A DNA stretch of 31,303 nucleotides from a virus (Duplodnaviria > Caudoviricetes). Made by a program: the position numbers and the translations under genes. The notes below the pieces were generated by a model. It was not told the origin of the DNA, did not search any database, and saw only the letters and a list, made by a program, of their open reading frames with translations. Positions within the stretch are counted from its first letter, which is position 1. Each line of letters starts with the position of its first letter. Where the stretch lies: positions 1 to 31,303 of IMG/VR virus record IMGVR_UViG_3300030397_000744; one strand, written 5' to 3'. This document shows, one piece after another, positions 1 through 8,591 of the stretch.

Positions 1-17
1 GTTTCCCAGTCACGATC
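1..17 (+). other. Random-amplification (Round A/B, SISPA-type) primer tag; library artefact
   Basis: The first 17 nt, GTTTCCCAGTCACGATC, are the fixed part of the widely used primer GTTTCCCAGTCACGATC-N9. The tag sits exactly at the contig end and truncates an ORF. Confidence 0.9.
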
Positions 18-84
18 CCAGTACGCCGATATTCACCAAAATTACCGCAATAATCCCACCCATCTTTGCACAAAAATTTGCCAT
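18..84 (-). CDS. Partial small hydrophobic protein (MANFCAKMGGIIAVILVNIGVL...), truncated by the primer tag
   Basis: ATG at 84 preceded by GGAGG; follows the 107..307 ORF on the same strand and runs into the primer tag. Confidence 0.55.
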
Positions 85-106
85 AATTATTCCTCCGTAT
101 CAAAAA

Positions 107-307
107 TTAATCTGCCTTGGTTTCCTGTTTTATCTCTCGAATTAGGTCATTTTTAGCATGAACTGTTAGCAATACTAAAATCAATCCTCCGTTTAGGTGT
201 ATGTGCCCGACCTGCCTACCTAGGGATATTTCAAGCATTGCAACGGCTATCATTACACTTGCTGAAATCCCCATGAATCTTAGATAATACAGTTTTCTCT
301 TGTCCAT
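107..307 (-). CDS. Hypothetical small membrane protein (66 aa)
   Basis: AAGGA upstream; two hydrophobic stretches; co-directional with neighbours. Confidence 0.65.
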   Translation of the reverse strand: MDKRKLYYLRFMGISASVMIAVAMLEISLGRQVGHIHLNGGLILVLLTVHAKNDLIREIKQETKAD

Positions 308-332
308 AATCGCGATTCCTTTCCACTGGGTA

Positions 333-521
333 TTATTGCAACATTCCGATATATGATGCGCTTGTCTCTATTCCATCGACCTTGTTCACATAGATATAAT
401 CAGATTGCTCGTAGTACCAATCCGGTATTGCAGTAGTTGTAAAATTATCCGTTTTCCTGTACACGTCCGTGGTGTTCAGTGGCGTTGCACCTTGCTCCGT
501 GTGTGAGTATTCGTATGGCAT
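333..521 (-). CDS. Hypothetical protein (62 aa, Thr/Tyr-rich)
   Basis: AAGGAG/AGGA upstream of the ATG; fits the tightly packed minus-strand gene string. Confidence 0.6.
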   Translation of the reverse strand: MPYEYSHTEQGATPLNTTDVYRKTDNFTTTAIPDWYYEQSDYIYVNKVDGIETSASYIGMLQ

Positions 522-530
522 AGCCTATTC

Positions 531-641
531 CTAACTCCTTGCTTCGTTGATGATGATGAAATAGCAGTTGTTCGTGCTAGTAGGCGAACTAGTGTATCTG
601 TCTTCGCCGCTGTAGACGGTGGTTTTTTCCTGTTCGTCCAT
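531..641 (-). CDS. Hypothetical micro-protein (36 aa, MDEQEKTTVYSGEDRY...)
   Basis: Read manually (below the ORF-track cutoff). AGGGGG upstream; fills the gap between 652 and 521. Confidence 0.5.
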   Translation of the reverse strand: MDEQEKTTVYSGEDRYTSSPTSTNNCYFIIINEARS

Positions 642-651
642 GCCTTTCCCC

Positions 652-924
652 CTATGCTGGACTAATCCAGGCCGTTGTTTTGGCCTTCGGGTAAATCGTT
701 ACATTGTTAGACTCGACATACTTCTCCTTCGGATCCATTGCCTCGATCTTGTAGCAACCGAAAAATTCGTCGAGTATTTCGGCGCTTCTGCCTTGCATAT
801 GTGCGTGCTTGACTTCCGCTATATGTTGCAATAGTTCGAGTAAGCCGTGGGTGTATATGCCTTTGCCATCGCCGCTCATGGTTTTACAAGCGTTCGTTAT
901 CATTCCTTCCAGATCTACGTTCAT
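652..924 (-). CDS. Hypothetical protein (90 aa, start re-assigned to MNVDLEG)
   Basis: ATG at 924 has GGAG 7 nt upstream within the conserved repeat; the track start at 942 lacks an RBS. Confidence 0.7.
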   Translation of the reverse strand: MNVDLEGMITNACKTMSGDGKGIYTHGLLELLQHIAEVKHAHMQGRSAEILDEFFGCYKIEAMDPKEKYVESNNVTIYPKAKTTAWISPA

Positions 925-965
925 ATCTTTGCTCCAATCCATCCGCGCAACCTTATACGGTTGCT
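922..965 (-). repeat. Hairpin-RBS-ATG element, copy C
   Basis: Minus strand AGCAACC-GTATAA-GGTTGC-GC-GGATGGATT-GGAGCAAAGATATG. Confidence 0.85.
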
Positions 966-1069
966 ACCTTGTATATCCTTACACCTGCTACCAAACCCGC
1001 TTCTGCGTACAGGGTGTGATCTACTATCCATGTTTCTTCTTTGCTGTCGTTTTCGCCTGTTCCGGCCAT
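953..1069 (-). CDS. Hypothetical micro-protein (38 aa, MAGTGENDSKEETW...)
   Basis: Starts at the ATG of repeat copy B (GGAG 7 nt upstream); its TAA lies in the loop of copy C. Confidence 0.6.
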   Translation of the reverse strand: MAGTGENDSKEETWIVDHTLYAEAGLVAGVRIYKVATV

Positions 1070-1111
1070 ATCTTTGCTCCGTTTCAGTCTGCGCAAGCTT
1101 GTACGCTTGCT
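1067..1111 (-). repeat. Hairpin-RBS-ATG element, copy B
   Basis: Minus strand AGCAAGC-GTACAA-GCTTGC-GC-AGACTGAAAC-GGAGCAAAGATATG. Confidence 0.85.
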
Positions 1112-1257
1112 ATCTCGTTTTCGATAATATCCGCGGTTTTGTCGATCCCGATCTCGACGCACATTGCTAGCACAACGAGAGTCTTTCCCGTACCGCAGTA
1201 ATTTTGACTCTGGCATTTTCCGCATTTGCTTAGATGATTTTGCCAAGCCTGTTTCAT
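1084..1257 (-). CDS. Small Cys/His protein, possible zinc binder (57 aa, MKQAWQNHLSKCGKCQSQNYCGTGKTL...)
   Basis: Read manually. Starts at the ATG of repeat copy A; HxxxCxxCx5C motif; TGA lies inside copy B. Confidence 0.65.
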   Translation of the reverse strand: MKQAWQNHLSKCGKCQSQNYCGTGKTLVVLAMCVEIGIDKTADIIENEIASVQACAD

Positions 1258-1298
1258 GTCTTCGCTCCAATATATTCGCGCAAGCTTTTACGCTTGCT
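1255..1298 (-). repeat. Hairpin-RBS-ATG element, copy A
   Basis: Minus strand AGCAAGC-GTAAAA-GCTTGC-GC-GAATATATT-GGAGCGAAGACATG. Confidence 0.85.
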
Positions 1299-1301
1299 TC
1301 A

Positions 1302-1886
1302 CTAATACCCTAATTTGTTGTACAATATTGAAAAATCTTGCAGGTCAACGCCTAGCATAGCTGTTATCCATAATGCTAGATTTAGAGCTTGCCTGCGATT
1401 TAGCCTCTTTCCTGCGAAAATAATATCTGTGTTTTGACCACCAACTGTGTGCATATTTGATAGGTCTAGCTCTTTCCATTCCTCGCTTAGTTCGCAAGGC
1501 TCATCCACTATTTTTTGCGTCTCTTGTGCATCTTGAGGATTTTCCTTTGCAACATTTGCAATATGTTCTTTTGCGGCTTCTGCTTCAGGATGCGGATATT
1601 GGTGCATCATCCAGTCGCCAGATATCGCCCATTTTATTGATCGCTTTACGTGGTTATACTCAGCACTCGCTTGCTCTGCCGTTATAAATATGAAAGTCCA
1701 CGATCTCTTTCCTGAATATATAGAAAAGGAGCTGCCGTATTTTTCTATATGATTCACCTCCAGCGGGTTTATTAGCAATTCTATAGACTTAATACTCTCC
1801 ACATGATTGCCATTTTGAGATATTGTGATCTCGTCCAGTTTTCCATCAACCAGCATCTTTAGCTCTAGCATTCCTTGCTTTTCCAT
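1302..1886 (-). CDS. Hypothetical protein (194 aa)
   Basis: AGGAG RBS; long ORF with normal composition; no family recognised. Confidence 0.8.
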   Translation of the reverse strand: MEKQGMLELKMLVDGKLDEITISQNGNHVESIKSIELLINPLEVNHIEKYGSSFSIYSGKRSWTFIFITAEQASAEYNHVKRSIKWAISGDWMMHQYPHPEAEAAKEHIANVAKENPQDAQETQKIVDEPCELSEEWKELDLSNMHTVGGQNTDIIFAGKRLNRRQALNLALWITAMLGVDLQDFSILYNKLGY

Positions 1887-1895
1887 TATATTCTC

Positions 1896-2012
1896 CTATT
1901 TGAAAAATATGTAAGCGACTACGTAGATAAACATTAGTAAGCTCATAAAGTCTAGCTTGCTGTTGATTCCAGCAAGAACTATCTTGAAATCTTTTATATC
2001 CTGTTCGGTCAT
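1896..2012 (-). CDS. Small membrane protein (38 aa, MTEQDIKDFKIVL...), start re-assigned
   Basis: TTGGAGCAAGAGATG RBS/start resembles the 3' half of the repeat element; hydrophobic C-terminus. Confidence 0.6.
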   Translation of the reverse strand: MTEQDIKDFKIVLAGINSKLDFMSLLMFIYVVAYIFFK

Positions 2013-2065
2013 CTCTTGCTCCAAAATTTCCCTACCTTTGCAGGGCTGTGTAGTACTCAAGGAGT

Positions 2066-2099
2066 ACGTGTCTGATTCAATAAGCACGTGTCTGATTCA
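2066..2099. repeat. Direct repeat 2x ACGTGTCTGATTCA, 20-bp period
   Basis: Exact 14-mers at 2066-2079 and 2086-2099, each followed by (C)ATAAG. Confidence 0.85.
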
Positions 2100-2103
2100 C
2101 ATA

Positions 2104-2400
2104 AGTAAGGTATAGGCTTACTGCTAAAATATTGCCTCCCACCCAAACCAGGGAGGCATTGTAAAACCGTTAATCTGTATAAAGTTGTATCATATTGTTT
2201 CGTAAGTCCTCCTAGGATAGAAAATATGTGAATAACTACGATTTTTCCTATTGCGACGAGCAACAGTGTTTTCATGAAAAATTAACCTACTTACGTTTCG
2301 GTTATAGGCCGAAATTATCACCCCTATTCGGGGTGGTATAGCTTTGTACTAACAGAAACATATCTGTTATAGGCAGATATGCTGCCCCTGTTGCGGGGCA
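2104..2400 (-). ncRNA. Candidate structured non-coding RNA or cis-element with three paired-hairpin units
   Basis: Hairpins at 2104-2122, 2133-2158, 2296-2314, 2319-2335, 2359-2381 and 2383-2400, plus a long-range stem 2201-2207/2289-2295. Three hairpins share the loop CCUAUA(A/C). Strand is inferred from the flanking genes. Confidence 0.55.
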
Positions 2401-2409
2401 TGGGGTTAT

Positions 2410-2739
2410 CTATGCAAAACCTTCGCCTGTTTCAAACAACACCCATTTTTCGGGGCCTTGTCTTTGCCATTTACCAGCGCGAAGTGGTAAGTCTAAGCGA
2501 ATCTGCCAATCGTTGTTGGGGTCTTGCGCGGCTTCCTTCTCGATATCTGCGAGAGTCTTGTTTTCCTCCCAAGGCTTATCCATCTCCTCCTCGAAATATT
2601 CCTCGCCGTTCTTTAGCACGACGTAGCCGCCAAAAGCGTTATATAGAACAGTGTCTAGTGCAAGATGGCTCTCTGTATTTGGGCAGCACAAGCATGGCCC
2701 GTGTGCGGTTTGTAAAGGTTTTTTGATCTCGTAGCTCAT
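2410..2739 (-). CDS. Conserved phage hypothetical protein (109 aa, CLCC motif, C-terminal ...WQRQG..W.L.E..EGFA)
   Basis: GAGG RBS; resembles a recurrent phage family of unknown function (from memory, not searched). Confidence 0.8.
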   Translation of the reverse strand: MSYEIKKPLQTAHGPCLCCPNTESHLALDTVLYNAFGGYVVLKNGEEYFEEEMDKPWEENKTLADIEKEAAQDPNNDWQIRLDLPLRAGKWQRQGPEKWVLFETGEGFA

Positions 2740-2837
2740 TTTTGCAACCTCGCTTTCATCTTAGATTTTCGTGTAATACGCAGGGGTATTCTCAAGTAGT
2801 ACAGTATTGATACTTTTGCAATAGGTGCTATTTTCAT
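2736..2837 (-). CDS. Basic micro-protein (33 aa, MKIAPIAKVSILYYLRIPLRITRKSKMKARLQK)
   Basis: GGAGGT RBS; ATGA overlaps with both neighbours, suggesting translational coupling. Confidence 0.55.
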   Translation of the reverse strand: MKIAPIAKVSILYYLRIPLRITRKSKMKARLQK

Positions 2838-3853
2838 GCTGATACCTCCGCGGGGTCTTTGTGTTCTGCTGTATTAGGCGTATTGTCGAACAGATCCGAT
2901 TGCTCCTCTTGTTCCTTGAATATGTTTGCAGCAGCCTTTGACTTAAGATGCAAATCTGTGTGGTATACATTGCGGTCATTCGCAAGTATACGCAGGTATT
3001 GCCGTGGGTTAGTGTATTCCTTGCCGTTGGAATCTGTCATGGTGTCGGCTTCTCGAATCTGATTCCACGTGAAGCTCTCGTACATTTCACCATCTTTTAT
3101 GATATTTGCTTTTGCAATAGGGAATGGCTTATTGCACCACTTTGCAAAATTTTCTTCGTACCACTTCACTTTTTCGTTGTCGGGTATTGGGTTGAGGATT
3201 TTTTCAATATAGGAAAAATCAGGAACAAATTTGTCCGGTAATGATTTTTCAAATGGACTATGTCGGTGTTTTTCTGTTATAGCTAGGCGGTTTTGGTATT
3301 CGTCTCTGGTTAGGTGCAATATAACGTCGAATTCGTAGAGAGTCTTCTTTACCTCGATAGCCATTCGAGGTACTTCGTTGTATTTAGTCTTCTCGTACTG
3401 GCTTTTTTTCTCCTCCTCCTCTTGCTTATATGCTTCGCGCACTGTAAAAACTATATTCATGTCCAAGTCACGAAGCATACCGAGAAACCTCATCCAATTA
3501 TTTTTGATGATTCTCCATTCCCATATAGCAATATTATCTTTTTGTACTTGCCTCATGTAGCTATCAACTACCATATCCCAAACTGTGCTGGCTGAATCAA
3601 TCACAAGTGTTTCAAAATCATGCTTTTGGGTTTTTAGGAATGTGAGAGCTTCATTGATTCTCTCAAAAGAATCATCATCTGAGGAATTTACATGAAATAT
3701 CGCTTGACCAAAATTCTCTTGGTGTGCCCCTTCTCTATCAGTTGCAATCATGCAAACCTTTGGCATTTGCAAAGCTAGGTATGTTTTCCCTGTTCCATAT
3801 TGGCCCCAAAAAAGGAGCCAAAGGTTACTGGCTTTTGTCCCTTTTGCAAACAT
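2834..3853 (-). CDS. AAA_24 / Sak4-like ATPase (putative single-strand annealing recombinase)
   Basis: Walker A GQYGTGKT, Walker B LVIDS, and a downstream YEFDVILHL motif typical of phage Sak4-like ATPases. Confidence 0.8.
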   Translation of the reverse strand: MFAKGTKASNLWLLFWGQYGTGKTYLALQMPKVCMIATDREGAHQENFGQAIFHVNSSDDDSFERINEALTFLKTQKHDFETLVIDSASTVWDMVVDSYMRQVQKDNIAIWEWRIIKNNWMRFLGMLRDLDMNIVFTVREAYKQEEEEKKSQYEKTKYNEVPRMAIEVKKTLYEFDVILHLTRDEYQNRLAITEKHRHSPFEKSLPDKFVPDFSYIEKILNPIPDNEKVKWYEENFAKWCNKPFPIAKANIIKDGEMYESFTWNQIREADTMTDSNGKEYTNPRQYLRILANDRNVYHTDLHLKSKAAANIFKEQEEQSDLFDNTPNTAEHKDPAEVSA

Positions 3854-5211
3854 TACACACCTACTTTCTTGAAAGGATTAGTGGGGGCTGTGATCTTTTT
3901 AAACCCAAACAGTTGTTTTTTAGGTGCTGTCTTTTCTTGGATTGGCTCAATATCTATTACGGTAGGTGCTTGTGGTTGTGGATTATTGAAATGTTGCGAT
4001 AAGTCACACATTGCGCGGTGTCCAACACGTGCGGTTTTTCTCCATGAATCACGATCTTCTTGCAATTTTTCGATCTTCTTTTCTTTGTCTAATATTAGAG
4101 AATGTGCGCTATCAAGACGTTTTTCTTGCATCGCTATTTTCTGCGATTGTTCGCGAATAATTTTGGCGAGAGCTTCGTTTTCCTCTTTTGCATTTTTCGC
4201 TGATTCTTCTGCTTTTTCAAGGCGTTTGGTAAGGATTGCGTTTTTTTGCTCTTGTATGGCTAGATCTTTTGCCTCATTAACCATATCAGTTAGGGCAGCG
4301 ACTTTGTCCTTCAGTTTGTCGTTTTCGGTTTCTAGCTGCTCAATCCTATCACGCAGCTCCTCGTTTTCGACATCCATATTCGTTGATCGTTCGATCTCAT
4401 CCTGTAGGAGTTTTTTGAGACGGTCTACCTCGTTGATAAGGCTTGCGTTATCCTCTGTTGCTTGTTCGTAATCTGCTGCAAGCTCCGAGTTTTGTTTTTG
4501 CAGATCTGCAATTTTCTCATCCAACATCTCGCATTCTTTGACGTGGTGATCCAGGTCAGACTGAGCAGCTTCGCGGCGTGTTTCTGTCCACTCCAGTTTT
4601 TCTTGCAACTGTTCGTTTTCGTGCAAAAGTCTTTCGTTTTCGTTTGTTAATCCACGTTTTTCAGCAGATAGAGCCATATTTTCTTTTTGCAATTTTGTTA
4701 TAATTGTGTCTTCAGACTCGCGCTTTTCAATGCATTTTTCGGTGGGGCAATGGATAGCATCTTGCAATTCTTGTTTCCAAGATTGTTTGCTCTGTTTCTG
4801 TTCGGGTTGTGGGGTATCTCGATTTACCAGCGTTGCTTTGACCTTGGCCTTAAACTTGCGTTTTGGAGGCATGTCGATAAATACATCTTCCTCTGTTTCC
4901 AAGGGAGTATCCTCATGGGTGCTACCTTCTGTATTCGATTTATACGGCTGCTTTTTGATTTTCTTATACAAAGCGCGAAATTTGTCATCCACCGTAAAAA
5001 TGCAAGCTTGGTCATTGTATCGCGTTAGTTTTTCTGTACGGCCCCAGGTGTATACTGCACTTTTCGATCTGCCGAAAAGCTCCATAACATTTTTCAGGCA
5101 CATTGTTTCCACGTTTTTCTCCTTTTTTTCGGCAGATGCATTAGCGAGATAATTGTCTCGGATGCTGCATTTTTTCGGTTTTTCGTTGCGATTTTGTTCA
5201 GTTTTGTACAT
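3853..5211 (-). CDS. N-terminal HTH plus long coiled-coil protein (452 aa)
   Basis: LKNVMELFGRSKSAVYTWGR is HTH-like; about 220 aa of E/K/L heptads; first gene after the promoter. Confidence 0.75.
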   Translation of the reverse strand: MYKTEQNRNEKPKKCSIRDNYLANASAEKKEKNVETMCLKNVMELFGRSKSAVYTWGRTEKLTRYNDQACIFTVDDKFRALYKKIKKQPYKSNTEGSTHEDTPLETEEDVFIDMPPKRKFKAKVKATLVNRDTPQPEQKQSKQSWKQELQDAIHCPTEKCIEKRESEDTIITKLQKENMALSAEKRGLTNENERLLHENEQLQEKLEWTETRREAAQSDLDHHVKECEMLDEKIADLQKQNSELAADYEQATEDNASLINEVDRLKKLLQDEIERSTNMDVENEELRDRIEQLETENDKLKDKVAALTDMVNEAKDLAIQEQKNAILTKRLEKAEESAKNAKEENEALAKIIREQSQKIAMQEKRLDSAHSLILDKEKKIEKLQEDRDSWRKTARVGHRAMCDLSQHFNNPQPQAPTVIDIEPIQEKTAPKKQLFGFKKITAPTNPFKKVGV

Positions 5212-5242
5212 AATTAAAATAGCCTTTCTTGGCGAAGGGTTT

Positions 5243-5283
5243 AAAAAGATCGGGAAACTCTCCAGGTGAACCGGTCTTTTTTT
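5243..5283. terminator. Imperfect hairpin with A and T tracts; possible terminator or attenuator in the leader
   Basis: AAAAAGATCGG-N17-CCGGTCTTTTTTT, lying between the promoter (5297) and the ATG (5211). Confidence 0.4.
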
Positions 5284-5296
5284 GGTTTATGCTTTA

Positions 5297-5324
5297 ATTA
5301 TATCACGTTGTTAAAATTTTGCAA
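5297..5324 (-). promoter_or_regulatory. Sigma70-type promoter with extended -10
   Basis: Minus strand TTGCAA-N16-TATAAT with TGn extension (TGATATAAT) and an AT-rich upstream tract. Confidence 0.7.
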
Positions 5325-5354
5325 CAACAAAATAAAAAAATATGTAAAATTTTT

Positions 5355-5645
5355 TCAACTATGTTTCCTCATCACATGATCATGCAATCCCTGTTTTTCT
5401 AGAAACATGTCAATCTTTTTTTTCATATCTCTGAGGTTGGGAGATACGACTGTTTTAACCTTGCCCTGTATTCTCTGAAAAGCCCTGTAGCCTTTGTATT
5501 CTATATTGTTTGATTTATAAGTGTACGGATTTATATTGAACCCCAAGTAACCTGTTTTTAGCAGATATTGGCAAGATTTTTCAAGCTCATCTGTCCAAAA
5601 TTTTAGCTTTCTACGCGCTTCTATTTCGCTTATCGAATTATGCAT
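5355..5645 (-). CDS. Hypothetical basic protein (96 aa)
   Basis: GAGG RBS and a promoter directly upstream. Confidence 0.75.
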   Translation of the reverse strand: MHNSISEIEARRKLKFWTDELEKSCQYLLKTGYLGFNINPYTYKSNNIEYKGYRAFQRIQGKVKTVVSPNLRDMKKKIDMFLEKQGLHDHVMRKHS

Positions 5646-5691
5646 GTTATGATAACCTCAATAAAATTTTTGACATGTTTTGTATGCAAAA

Positions 5692-5719
5692 ATTATACAA
5701 CTGCGCGGAAATATTGCAA
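5692..5719 (-). promoter_or_regulatory. Sigma70-type promoter
   Basis: Minus strand TTGCAA-N16-TATAAT, with the same hexamers and spacing as 5297..5324. Confidence 0.65.
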
Positions 5720-5748
5720 TAAAAAAATCCCTGGGGGATACCAGGGAT
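5720..5748 (-). terminator. Rho-independent terminator after the pilin gene
   Basis: Minus strand ATCCCTGG-N6-CCAGGGAT followed by a T-run. Confidence 0.8.
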
Positions 5749-5789
5749 GCGGAAAACTACGAAGGTATGTGCCGTTCGTGTATGGAAAA

Positions 5790-6518
5790 TTAGTCTAATT
5801 CTGTCCAAGTCGCTCCAGCCTCATCAACCTCTCCATTTTTCATGGGCTTAAAATTTCCAGCAAAAAGTACTGCGTCATCTGAGCCATTAACCCCCGTATC
5901 AATTCCGCTATTAAATACAGGTGTAGTGGCAGCATTGCGCCCGTCGAAAAAAGCAGCCCCGGTTCCATCGTTGTTTGCAGTGGAAAGAACATCGCCGCCT
6001 TGATCTATCGCAAATGCACGAATACCTGTAGTTTCTGCTGACGTTGGCCAAGCAAAAATTCGAAATTTTTGTTCTTGCAAGTCAATTATTGCAGCATCAT
6101 TAGAAGCGGGTCTCTCTGCTGCGGCATCGTCTTGGATATCCCCAGGAAGAAAGCACTTGTACAGGTAGCCAGATTTATCACCAATACCATCACCTGCTAG
6201 ATTTGGAGCAAGGCCAGCAGTAATAAATGCTGGGTCTGCAACTTCACCAGAGACAGCTAGGGTTTTTATTCCACCGAGTTCATCTAGCAAACCATATTCT
6301 CCAGATCCATCTAGATCCTGATTGACTAGAGATTGTTGTTGAAATTGAACTTCTGATGTTGAGATAGATCGTAAGCTTCCGATAGCTGAGCTTTCATTTG
6401 ATGAGATTCTAGCACGAAGCAAACCAGGAATGGCAATTGCTGCGATGATAGCAATAATGGCTACCACAATCATCAATTCAATGAGGGTGAAACCTCTTTT
6501 TCTATTTGTCGATATCAT
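5790..6518 (-). CDS. Type IV pilin-like protein (prepilin N-terminal cleavage/methylation domain)
   Basis: Class III signal peptide MISTNRKRG|FTLIELMIVVAIIAIIAAIAIP with Glu+5, followed by LLRARISSNESSAIGSLRSI; AAGGAG RBS. Confidence 0.92.
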   Translation of the reverse strand: MISTNRKRGFTLIELMIVVAIIAIIAAIAIPGLLRARISSNESSAIGSLRSISTSEVQFQQQSLVNQDLDGSGEYGLLDELGGIKTLAVSGEVADPAFITAGLAPNLAGDGIGDKSGYLYKCFLPGDIQDDAAAERPASNDAAIIDLQEQKFRIFAWPTSAETTGIRAFAIDQGGDVLSTANNDGTGAAFFDGRNAATTPVFNSGIDTGVNGSDDAVLFAGNFKPMKNGEVDEAGATWTELD

Positions 6519-6537
6519 TCAAGTTCTCCTTGAAAAT

Positions 6538-6556
6538 GCCTATCTCAGAGATAGGC
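6538..6556. promoter_or_regulatory. Perfect dyad GCCTATCTC-A-GAGATAGGC upstream of the pilin RBS
   Basis: 9-bp arms, about 6 nt before the AAGGAG, flanked by T-rich sequence on both strands. Confidence 0.55.
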
Positions 6557-6600
6557 TGTTTTGTGTTTTAAGTGAAATTAATTGCGAGATTTGAAATTGC

Positions 6601-6927
6601 TTATTTGATTAGATTCTTTATATTTTTGTAAGTGTTGTTTGGGCTAGAGGAAATATTGACCTTTGTTTTATCGTCTGATAATTTTTCTTCGATTTTTTGC
6701 AGCTCCTCCTCGTTGAAGGTGTAAAGTTGTTCTGTTTTTCCATCGACGTTTTGATCTACGACAACGCCACCGGACTCATCGGATTTCTGCTTATTAAAAC
6801 CGATATCACCGCAGTATTCTTTGCCCTCGTCTTTGTAACAAAAACCTATGGAGTCAATGGGCACACTGCTGCAACCTGTGCAAGAAAATAAGTACGATAA
6901 AATAATCAATATTGGGATAAGTTTCAT
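6601..6927 (-). CDS. Putative lipoprotein (108 aa)
   Basis: MK + hydrophobic core + lipobox-like LFSC/TGC; GGAG RBS; two further Cys. Confidence 0.75.
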   Translation of the reverse strand: MKLIPILIILSYLFSCTGCSSVPIDSIGFCYKDEGKEYCGDIGFNKQKSDESGGVVVDQNVDGKTEQLYTFNEEELQKIEEKLSDDKTKVNISSSPNNTYKNIKNLIK

Positions 6928-6949
6928 AATTATGCTCCGTGTTTTAAAT

Positions 6950-6989
6950 AAACCTTTGCATTACAAAGGTTTTCGTTTTTATAAAAACG
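6950..6989. promoter_or_regulatory. Two adjacent dyads between the kinase and lipoprotein genes
   Basis: AAACCTTTG-N5-CAAAGGTTT (6950-6972) and the perfect palindrome CGTTTTTATAAAAACG (6974-6989). Confidence 0.5.
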
Positions 6990-7004
6990 GTAAATAAAAT
7001 GGCT

Positions 7005-8591
7005 CTAATACATATTTCGATTTTTTGTGATGTTGTGAACCATCAATAAGGATCTTGCGAAATTCTTTTTTCTTTCGTCTTTAATATTCTCTAAGACCTT
7101 TTCTATATCGAGAGGGTCTTTCTTTTTCTCTAATCGTCCAACGGCCTCTAGTCTCTGTGATATTTTTTTGTTTTTATCTTCCTTAGGTATAATTTCAGGG
7201 ATGATCTTATCAGCAACTTTTGGGATTGTTTCTTTTGCAACTTCTGGAAGGGCTTCGCGCAAAGCTTTCTCCACAGTCTCTTTTATTTCGATCATAGCCT
7301 CGCTAACCGCTTCTTGTATATCCGAAGAACTTCCGCGGCTAATCTGTTCTTGTTCTTTTTTGTCTTTGGGCTCTTCGTCTTGTATTATTACCTCTGTGTC
7401 TTGGTGATAATTAACTTGATCTATAGTGCATTGATAGGACTTTTGTAGATATTTCGCAATGTCTGTAGACATCTGCACAAGATGCTCGTAATTTCCGCTA
7501 TCGCTCTGTCTAGTTGCTTTTTTGAATATTTCTCGCAAATCTGGACACATAATTTCTTGAGGTGGGAATAGATGTAATTGGTTTTGCCTTGGATCGCCAC
7601 GTAAGCCTGGAAAATTTTCAGTTATTATGTTGTGCATTAGAATTCCAATGCTCCATATATCGCTCTTATAATTTCTAGCGATATAGTTATCTTTTTGTTC
7701 CGGAGCACTGTAAACAGGGTTATATCTAACATCTTCTGAAACACTGTGCCCTATGTGCCATAGAGGATTTTTAGAATAGCTAAAATCTATTAATATTACC
7801 TCGTCTTGCATATCTCCGTTACGATCTTGAAATTCTTTTATCATGATATTTTTATCAGATATGTCTGAGTGCATGAATTTTTCTTTATGGAAGCATTCCC
7901 ATAAAAAATGACACATTTTTGCGAGAACTTTAATTTTTCTAAAATCACTCTTTCCTTCAGCCCAATGCTGTGCTGTTTGAGCTTCTACGTATTCATACAC
8001 AACCCAGCAGAACTTAATTAATCCAGGATCTTTATATTTTATTTTTCCCTTCTTTTTGTATTCGATAAAAGCTTGAAATTCTTCTGGCTTATCTTCTTCC
8101 ACGTAAAAAGGGTGATCAAAAACAGCAGGGACATAGCCTATTCCCTTAAATTTTTTTGCTCTATAGTGAGCATCGTTTTGTATGTCAATACTCCTTTTAA
8201 AAAACTCCATCCCACGTGACATTTTGTGATTTTTGTATACCATAGAAAGACTATTAGACCTGTTAAGTCTAACATCAGAATAGATGTCCATTTGCTCATT
8301 GTCTATTCCGGGCTTTCTCGTTTTCACTTTAGATTTTTGTTTTGTTAAAGGTTTTCCTAGATTTGAGAAAGGGAATTTAACTATTACTATGTTGTCTGTT
8401 TTAAGATATTTAGCCTTGTAGACAACACTTTCCCCAAATATTCCTATGGGGCAAAGGTATTCATATACTTGTGGGATTTTGGAAAAAAGCACCCTGGTTT
8501 TATTTCTGTTTTTTGGGGTGTGCAGCTCTTGAGGAGTATATTTATTTGTTTTAAAATCTTTTAAGACACCACCATAAGTATTGAAAAGCAT
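7005..8591 (-). CDS. Hanks-type Ser/Thr protein kinase with a charged C-terminal tail
   Basis: Subdomains in order: IGIFGESVVYKA (I), VIVKF (II), HSDISDKNIMI (VIb), IDFS (VII), YSAPEQ (VIII), SDIWSIG (IX). Confidence 0.88.
   Translation of the reverse strand: MLFNTYGGVLKDFKTNKYTPQELHTPKNRNKTRVLFSKIPQVYEYLCPIGIFGESVVYKAKYLKTDNIVIVKFPFSNLGKPLTKQKSKVKTRKPGIDNEQMDIYSDVRLNRSNSLSMVYKNHKMSRGMEFFKRSIDIQNDAHYRAKKFKGIGYVPAVFDHPFYVEEDKPEEFQAFIEYKKKGKIKYKDPGLIKFCWVVYEYVEAQTAQHWAEGKSDFRKIKVLAKMCHFLWECFHKEKFMHSDISDKNIMIKEFQDRNGDMQDEVILIDFSYSKNPLWHIGHSVSEDVRYNPVYSAPEQKDNYIARNYKSDIWSIGILMHNIITENFPGLRGDPRQNQLHLFPPQEIMCPDLREIFKKATRQSDSGNYEHLVQMSTDIAKYLQKSYQCTIDQVNYHQDTEVIIQDEEPKDKKEQEQISRGSSSDIQEAVSEAMIEIKETVEKALREALPEVAKETIPKVADKIIPEIIPKEDKNKKISQRLEAVGRLEKKKDPLDIEKVLENIKDERKKNFARSLLMVHNITKNRNMY

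Follow-up and report, generated by a model that had tools for sequence, protein, structure and literature searches.

A repeated two-hairpin unit with a common CCUAUA loop in the early region of an uncultured aquatic phage

Introduction

Hairpin arrays that are defined by their loops are a known design. In Alphaproteobacteria, the cuckoo and CcsR RNAs are described as tandem hairpin modules in the 3' trailer of a small gene for a DUF1127 protein; their stems vary greatly, and every hairpin carries a fixed C/U-rich loop, CCUCCUCCC (PMC4615179, PMC8034643). CcsR RNAs are two-hairpin units with a common loop that RNase E cuts from the 3' UTR of this small gene (PMC8034643). The early promoters of phage N4, as described, are three DNA hairpins with partly free stems and a 3-nt purine-rich loop whose fixed bases can be protein sites, and they serve the virion RNA polymerase (PMC4496689). 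The boxB hairpin of the lambdoid nut sites is likewise small, read through its loop and placed in a phage early operon, and that of phi21 is described with a CUAACC hexaloop (PMC12550061). Reported ANTAR targets are hairpin pairs read via loop bases with stems free to vary, formed by two 3-bp stems with hexaloops (A1, G4) that overlap a terminator (PMC3369931). Among type I toxin mRNAs, of which AapA/IsoA is an example, long-distance occlusion of the Shine-Dalgarno (SD) site is described as a hallmark (PMC8594479).

Here we follow up an initial annotation of a window of 31,303 nt, which is the whole record of one virus and carries nearly all of its genes on the minus strand. The annotation had proposed that positions 2104-2400 hold a structured, non-coding RNA made of three two-hairpin units that share a loop and offer three binding sites to one protein.

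Of the described systems, the cuckoo and CcsR RNAs share with this locus the tandem arrangement of variable stems and a fixed loop behind a small gene. They differ in the loop, which here is CCUAUA(A/C) and is carried by one hairpin per unit with a GC-rich partner, and they come from another phylum; the upstream gene here encodes a 109-aa protein without a Pfam match and not a DUF1127 protein. Because the defining loop is absent, the relation is one of likeness to CcsR and not of membership. With the N4 promoters the locus has in common three inverted repeats, partly free stems and loop bases suited to reading by a protein, but the loop here has 7 nt instead of 3 nt with conserved purines, and no polymerase gene was recognised among the 39 ORFs scanned. 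Compared with the ANTAR targets, the loops here are heptaloops with C1 and A4, each pair has a single copy of the common loop, and there is no U-tailed terminator.

Results

The phage is tailed, with a gene set that includes a lambda-type terminase and portal, a fused protease-capsid, a tape measure and tail genes, together with a Ser/Thr kinase, a pilin-like gene and a Sak4-like annealing protein. It was present in three DNA runs (X1-X3), all from one aquatic-metagenome study and one of them perhaps the origin of the record, and the contig is probably incomplete. We regard it as an uncultured aquatic phage whose host is probably a planctomycete, a placement that draws on pilin matches, GC content and one terminase. 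The longest pilin matches in GTDB were mostly titled Planctomycetota (2 of 64 parts scanned), and when the pilin was compared with 301 genomes of Planctomycetota, genomes G180 and G013 ranked first and third (49 and 53%), with matches at loci with the same 38-40% GC as the phage. A further genome of the same class, G078, has a prophage-like contig with a terminase 45-47% identical to that of the phage. The pilin-like gene (5790-6518, minus strand) is a full-length prepilin gene of planctomycete type, its product about 50% identical to the G180 and G013 proteins, and it stands with the Ser/Thr kinase gene (7005-8591, minus) between the tail and early modules.

The element lies directly behind the stop codon of the gene for the 109-aa protein (2410-2739, minus), inside a run of genes on one strand. 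As had been claimed, the surrounding gap of 397 nt (2013-2409) is the largest gene-free stretch between 1 and 8.6 kb, provided that a 72-aa ORF within it is no gene. Its 3' border is formed by a gene for a 38-aa hydrophobic protein (1896-2012, minus) with a GGAG site. A sigma70-like promoter (5297-5324, minus; TTGCAA-16-TATAAT with a TG extension, a consensus match only) is the likely start of an early transcript that would cross the element. At 3853-5211 (minus) a 452-aa protein is encoded that has a helix-turn-helix-like start, judged by eye, and a long coiled coil; the one relative of this protein, P0005, nearly matches it in the final 90 residues but is weakly similar elsewhere. Very small hydrophobic ORFs of 24, 66 and 38 aa with ribosome sites occur in the early region at 10-84, 107-307 and 1896-2012 (minus), and those of 66 and 38 aa have no family match.

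The 109-aa protein belongs to a broad, unnamed family with 372 representatives, which has an invariant GFA-like tail and a CxxC motif near the N-terminus. Its structure was modelled with a pLDDT of 93.7, and no fold match was obtained at E 0.001 (Foldseek, PDB and BFVD), making it a candidate new fold. It also had no match in Pfam.

All six hairpins of the three units proved to be perfect Watson-Crick inverted repeats at the positions assigned to them on the minus strand. Unit 1 consists of a GC-rich hairpin at 2383-2400 (TGCCCC/GGGGCA, 6-nt loop, -11.8 kcal/mol, no U-tail), which starts 9 nt past the stop codon of the 109-aa gene, and loop hairpin 1 at 2359-2381 (CATATCTG-CCTATAA-CAGATATG, 8 bp). 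Unit 2 has its GC-rich hairpin at 2319-2335 (CACCCC/GGGGTG) and loop hairpin 2 at 2296-2314 (TTTCGG-CCTATAA-CCGAAA, 6 bp), and unit 3 has a GC-rich hairpin at 2133-2158 (TGCCTCCC/GGGAGGCA, 10-nt loop) and loop hairpin 3 at 2104-2122 (AGTAAG-CCTATAC-CTTACT, 6 bp). All three units point the same way: read in the direction of the early genes, the GC-rich hairpin comes before the loop hairpin.

The common loop CCTATA(A/C), displayed on three different perfect stems that all close with G-C, was confirmed in the sequence. The motif GCCTATA occurs on the minus strand at just three sites in the 31,303 nt (2374, 2309 and 2117), and three hairpins with a common loop arose in 0 of 20,000 dinucleotide shuffles of 2090-2410 when stems of at least 6 bp were counted and one mismatch in the loop was allowed; the best outcome was two loop-sharing hairpins, in 33 of the 20,000. 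The pairing of each loop hairpin with a GC-rich hairpin on its 5' side was also borne out. There are 112 perfect hairpins in the contig, only 5 with at least five G-C pairs, and 3 of these 5 lie 1, 4 and 10 nt from the loop hairpins, while a fourth is the U-tailed terminator at 5727-5748. The GC-rich hairpins of the element are as stable (-10.8 to -15.0 kcal/mol) as the hairpin of this terminator (-12.7) but lack its U-tail, with 3 T in the 9 nt after the unit 1 hairpin compared to 8 at the terminator. Canonical terminators were rejected for the GC-rich hairpins on this ground, and their terminator-like stability in the absence of a U-tail would fit a role as barriers instead.

In an alignment of the three copies anchored at the loop, pairing holds in 18 of 18 stem cells. 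Of the 6 pairs, 4 differ on both sides, and the two that stay constant are the closing G-C pair and a T-A pair four pairs down; because these three sequences also supplied the structure, the count is descriptive. Units 1 and 2 agree at 29 of 53 positions in an ungapped alignment with a period of 65, and they are a duplication that diverged while its stems were repaired or kept, the best sign of structural selection at this locus. The element is three diverged copies of a two-hairpin unit, a pattern that is real and far beyond chance. Across 1853-2900, no sequence variants were present in the three DNA runs of the one study.

The region as a whole folded better than shuffled controls on both strands (z of -4.2 on the minus and -4.7 on the plus strand), and this strength comes from the six hairpins. 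With these fixed and the linkers shuffled, z was -0.3 on the minus strand (48 of 120 shuffles as good) and -1.1 on the plus strand (16 of 120), and extra folding of the linkers beyond shuffles was absent on either strand, as RNA or as DNA. The idea of one large folded RNA was rejected because of this result. A long-range stem, CGTAAGT/ACTTACG, which had been thought to enclose further helices between units 2 and 3, is a genuine 7-bp complement, yet forcing it costs 3.5 kcal/mol compared to the free fold.

Measures of the active strand disagreed. The raw z of the inner region 2046-2356 (-5.2 plus, -2.6 minus) favours the plus strand, whereas loop openness favours the minus strand, on which loops 1 and 2 are open with a probability of at least 0.98 per base; on the plus strand U-G pairs close them. 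As minus-strand RNA, loop hairpin 1 forms with a pair probability of 0.91 and its loop is unpaired at 0.99. Loop hairpin 3 is weak in the same RNA (0.07-0.17) because its 3' arm is taken by a predicted rival helix of 11 bp, 3 of them G-U, between 2296-2286 and 2109-2099 (spanning 2099-2296, minus), which also covers the ribosome-binding-site-like (RBS-like) sequence of the 72-aa ORF. The two folds are less than 1 kcal/mol apart and the helix is not significant compared to linker shuffles; as single-stranded DNA, hairpin 3 reaches 0.55 on the minus and 0.91 on the plus strand. With linkers that fold no better than shuffles and strand measures that conflict, folding favours neither RNA nor DNA and neither strand.

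The annotation had described an RNA that it did not recognise, and searches agreed. No Rfam match was found in the window (two junk matches, E 1.4 and 6.1), and ARAGORN returned 0 tRNA or tmRNA genes. The pattern searches all demanded this loop and would miss relatives whose loop differs. Among at least 119 double-loop loci in viral contigs (42 of 64 parts), one had two 4-bp Watson-Crick stems, an identical tandem repeat, and none had longer stems. The one-unit pattern gave a Watson-Crick stem of more than 3 bp at 0 of 41 viral loci, and the two-unit pattern gave two Watson-Crick stems of at least 4 bp at 0 of at least 118 loci in metagenome contigs (54 of 64 parts). BLAST returned two chance matches at E 0.9 from GenBank phages and no match from plasmids, and patterns for the terminase, for Sak4 and for a second hairpin family of this phage (described below) found no close viral relative.

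Searches of the host lineage gave the same picture. In the class of G180, the pilin gene was the sole clear match at the DNA level. Among the 61 of 107 GCCTATAMC sites of G180 and G013 that were fetched, the longest stem was 5 bp, and when genomes were searched with a 25-position model of the loop hairpin, 4 of 9 and 3 of 151 had a single match each and no cluster appeared; 3 of the 4 matches inspected lay inside long ORFs and 1 had another loop. The prophage-like contig of G078 shares only the terminase, portal and capsid with the phage and has no cluster of same-loop hairpins. This contig (C80, L477-L479) is 40.6 kb long and low in GC, belongs to the likely host class, and has a terminase, portal and protease-capsid that are 37-47% identical to those of the phage. 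Homologues of the element were sought downstream of the 109-aa gene in other genomes, and it was present at 0 of the 5 homologous loci examined (7 were found, 2 apparent duplicates were left out, and one had about 250 nt downstream). The 109-aa protein was consequently rejected as a dedicated partner, having no fold match and no element at its homologous loci. A literature search, mostly outside subscription journals, found no published account of such an element. The element has no catalogued family and no homologue in the viral, metagenome, phage, plasmid and host-lineage searches.

Discussion

The element is a real, selected and uncatalogued signal array of a known general kind. The reading that we favour, at a probability of roughly 45%, is that it works at the RNA level, as a set of sites on the early transcript for binding or processing. 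A minus-strand transcript, read through from the promoter-like site at 5324, would carry the array; each GC-rich hairpin would act as a pause or a barrier to 3' exonucleases, and the hairpin behind it would present its G-C-closed CCUAUA loop to one sequence-specific protein that may bind or cut. Either event would leave the GC-rich hairpin as a 3' barrier, so that the long early mRNA would be processed, and this could stabilise the upstream part with the Sak4 and 109-aa genes and set the level of the small downstream genes. The units could also be released as small RNAs.

The orientation of all units, which is that of the genes of the contig, argues for this reading, as do the excess of the pattern over chance, the stems preserved through sequence change, the start of the first hairpin close behind a stop codon and the openness of loops 1 and 2 on the minus strand. 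The CcsR RNAs offer a precedent for the layout. That the phage uses repeated hairpin signals on the sense strand is also suggested by the second three-hairpin family, whose copies precede start codons of this operon by 21-22 nt. Against an RNA reading stand the lack of selected RNA structure beyond the six hairpins, the inner-region z that favours the plus strand, cores that are purely Watson-Crick, as those of DNA hairpins would be, the predicted displacement of hairpin 3 from most of the minus-strand RNA, and the lack of any homologue in the searches above. From the initial proposal of three binding sites for one protein, the three loop-specific sites on structurally maintained stems are retained and the single large RNA fold is dropped. 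No reader protein for the loops was identified; the 109-aa protein is without a fold match, and the element was absent from the 5 loci of its homologues that were examined. A more specific form of the reading, which we consider doubtful, is that a low-GC planctomycete phage makes a three-unit RNA array from an early-gene trailer, each unit with a protective GC-rich hairpin and a CCUAUA display hairpin, to titrate or recruit an undescribed sequence-specific RNA-binding or defence protein of the host.

N-type antitermination would be a minor form of the same RNA reading. The loop hairpins resemble boxB of the lambdoid nut sites, especially that of phi21, as small loop-read hairpins of a phage early operon with a pyrimidine-CUA-rich loop, but they have 7-nt loops and come in three copies about 2.9 kb from the promoter. 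This idea, raised in the annotation, found no local support: there was no boxA-like motif (GCTCTT, TCTTTRA) on the minus strand in 1-7000, no strongly Arg-rich stretch and no clear N-like protein among the 15 early or small proteins compared from the probably incomplete contig (at most 3 Arg in any 12 residues), and no U-tailed intrinsic terminator on the minus strand below 2100. The put RNA of HK022, with which the annotation had also compared the element, has two adjacent stems, as does unit 1 with its 1-nt spacer; put acts directly on RNA polymerase near a promoter and is not known to have a repeated common loop. The loops were also considered as sigma70 -10 boxes and rejected, there being no fitting -35, no match in a promoter scan and fewer copies of the motif than of its control in G180 and G013.

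It is possible, if rather unlikely, that the hairpins act as DNA, extruded or single-stranded, and are read by a primase, initiator or polymerase in an origin or a cluster of hairpin promoters. Pure Watson-Crick cores without additional RNA structure fit this alternative, as does the formation of all three loop hairpins in single-stranded DNA (0.85-0.95, apart from the lower minus-strand value of hairpin 3), and the element lies downstream of the Sak4-like gene. The N4 early promoters are a precedent for three DNA hairpins as protein sites. The candidate initiator sites would be two exact 14-bp direct repeats (TGAATCAGACACGT; 2066-2099, minus) with a 20-bp period, which adjoin unit 3 on its 3' side and are the longer of the only two exact repeats of at least 12 nt within 100 nt in the contig. 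There is also one DnaA-box-like site, TTATTCACA (2227-2235, minus), with one mismatch to the consensus, but it is a weak match with 8 such sites in the contig, and DnaA-like sites are not clearly enriched (3 seen and 1.6 expected at two mismatches). Iteron-type phage origins have at least three iterons, an AT-rich unwinding region and an adjacent initiator gene. Here there are two repeats, the spacer is just moderately AT-rich (88th percentile), and no initiator, primase, helicase or RNA polymerase was recognised in the 39 ORFs scanned of a contig that is probably incomplete. All units point one way, which also speaks against a DNA role, and the difference in skew between its left and right sides is based on 198 sites, with gene class as a confounder. 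A 9-mer, ATTCACATA, occurs as an inverted pair around unit 3 (2095-2103, plus; 2225-2233, minus), its copies overlapping the first direct repeat and the DnaA-like box.

A further alternative, which we hold to be improbable, starts from the doubtful 72-aa ORF (2057-2275, minus), which would contain unit 3 if it were real. The region would then be the structured mRNA of a small membrane protein, silenced like a type I toxin mRNA, with 2109-2099 pairing over the ribosome site and the CCUA loops serving as spare anti-SD sequences. The ORF has a hydrophobic N-terminus, with a 19-residue hydropathy of 2.43 that exceeds all 16 spurious ORFs tested, and an RBS-like sequence (TAAGTAGGT) 9 nt before its ATG that is of ordinary strength (-6.4 kcal/mol, a value also seen at real genes); Sak4 is preceded by the same AAGTAGGT. 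Small hydrophobic proteins are encoded by several neighbouring genes, and as in AapA/IsoA a region of about 350 nt combines a small hydrophobic ORF with predicted long-distance pairing over the ribosome site. Occlusion by the cis anti-SD is predicted at 0.67-0.88, though not above linker shuffles, and is predicted to grow once the 3' end has been made, the unpaired probability of the site falling from 0.36-0.48 to 0.11-0.17.

Other properties of the ORF argue against a toxin. Its codons are atypical (score -0.03; of 117 chunks taken from real genes, 116 score higher), its 72 aa exceed the 20-60 aa given for toxins in PMC8594479, and it had no match in Pfam or PHROG. Conservation of this ORF at the protein level had been named as a finding that would count against a non-coding element; it is not conserved, since neither a search of 5.8 billion proteins nor one of 9 genomes from the host class returned a homologue, but this is uninformative because nothing in the region has homologues. 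Neither a sigma70-like promoter near the element nor a terminator for an antitoxin was seen on the plus strand, the long helix is the one that is not significant compared to linker shuffles, and unit 1 is left unexplained.

There is a slim probability that the units are small RNAs of the cuckoo type that repress translation in trans, with open loops pairing to ribosome-binding sites of the UAGG type. The cuckoo layout likewise places variable stems and a fixed C/U loop behind a small gene, and CCUAU is complementary to (A/G)UAGG, which is present before 5 of 38 phage starts (p 0.003). However, AAGG (9 of 38) and GAGG (7 of 38) are enriched equally, which shows only the common AGG core, the duplexes of open loops reach just -5 to -6 kcal/mol, and the likely host lineage has an ordinary CACCUCCU anti-SD that the loop does not copy.

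Least probable is that the loop hairpins mimic an anticodon arm (UAU at 34-36, A37, A/C38) and are decoys for a synthetase or for a defence enzyme that cuts tRNA: the 7-nt loop has a pyrimidine at 32, A at 37, variation confined to 38 and 5 of 7 bases in common with the host-lineage tRNA-Ile loop CTGATAA, but such resemblance easily arises by chance, position 33 is C where 28 of the 29 distinct host-lineage anticodon loops printed have U33, no tRNA identity pairs are kept in the stems, and both ARAGORN and Rfam were empty.

Whichever molecule is read, the CCUAUA(A/C) heptaloop with its closing G-C is a precisely specified ligand, and its reader, if found, would be a new RNA- or DNA-hairpin-binding protein. 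As a single orphan case of a known design, the array has its value as a good lead.

The second hairpin family of the phage has three copies on the minus strand (945-964, 1091-1110 and 1278-1297) of the form GCAASC-GTA(A/C/T)AA-GSTTGC-GC, with one compensatory pair change and a chance expectation of 0.01. Each copy precedes the start codon of a small gene by the 21-22 nt given above and is followed by GGAGC(A/G)AAGA, and no exact match was found in viral contigs. These hairpins may be signals for translation or processing, or they may mark cassette junctions. In each of the three runs, contigs break at the repeat of this family at 925-954, and in one contig 337 is joined to 925, suggesting that variant phages swap genes at this repeat. 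In run X1, read depth across 925-5315 amounts to about 2-3.6 times the flanking depth, and in X2 and X3 it changes in uneven steps.
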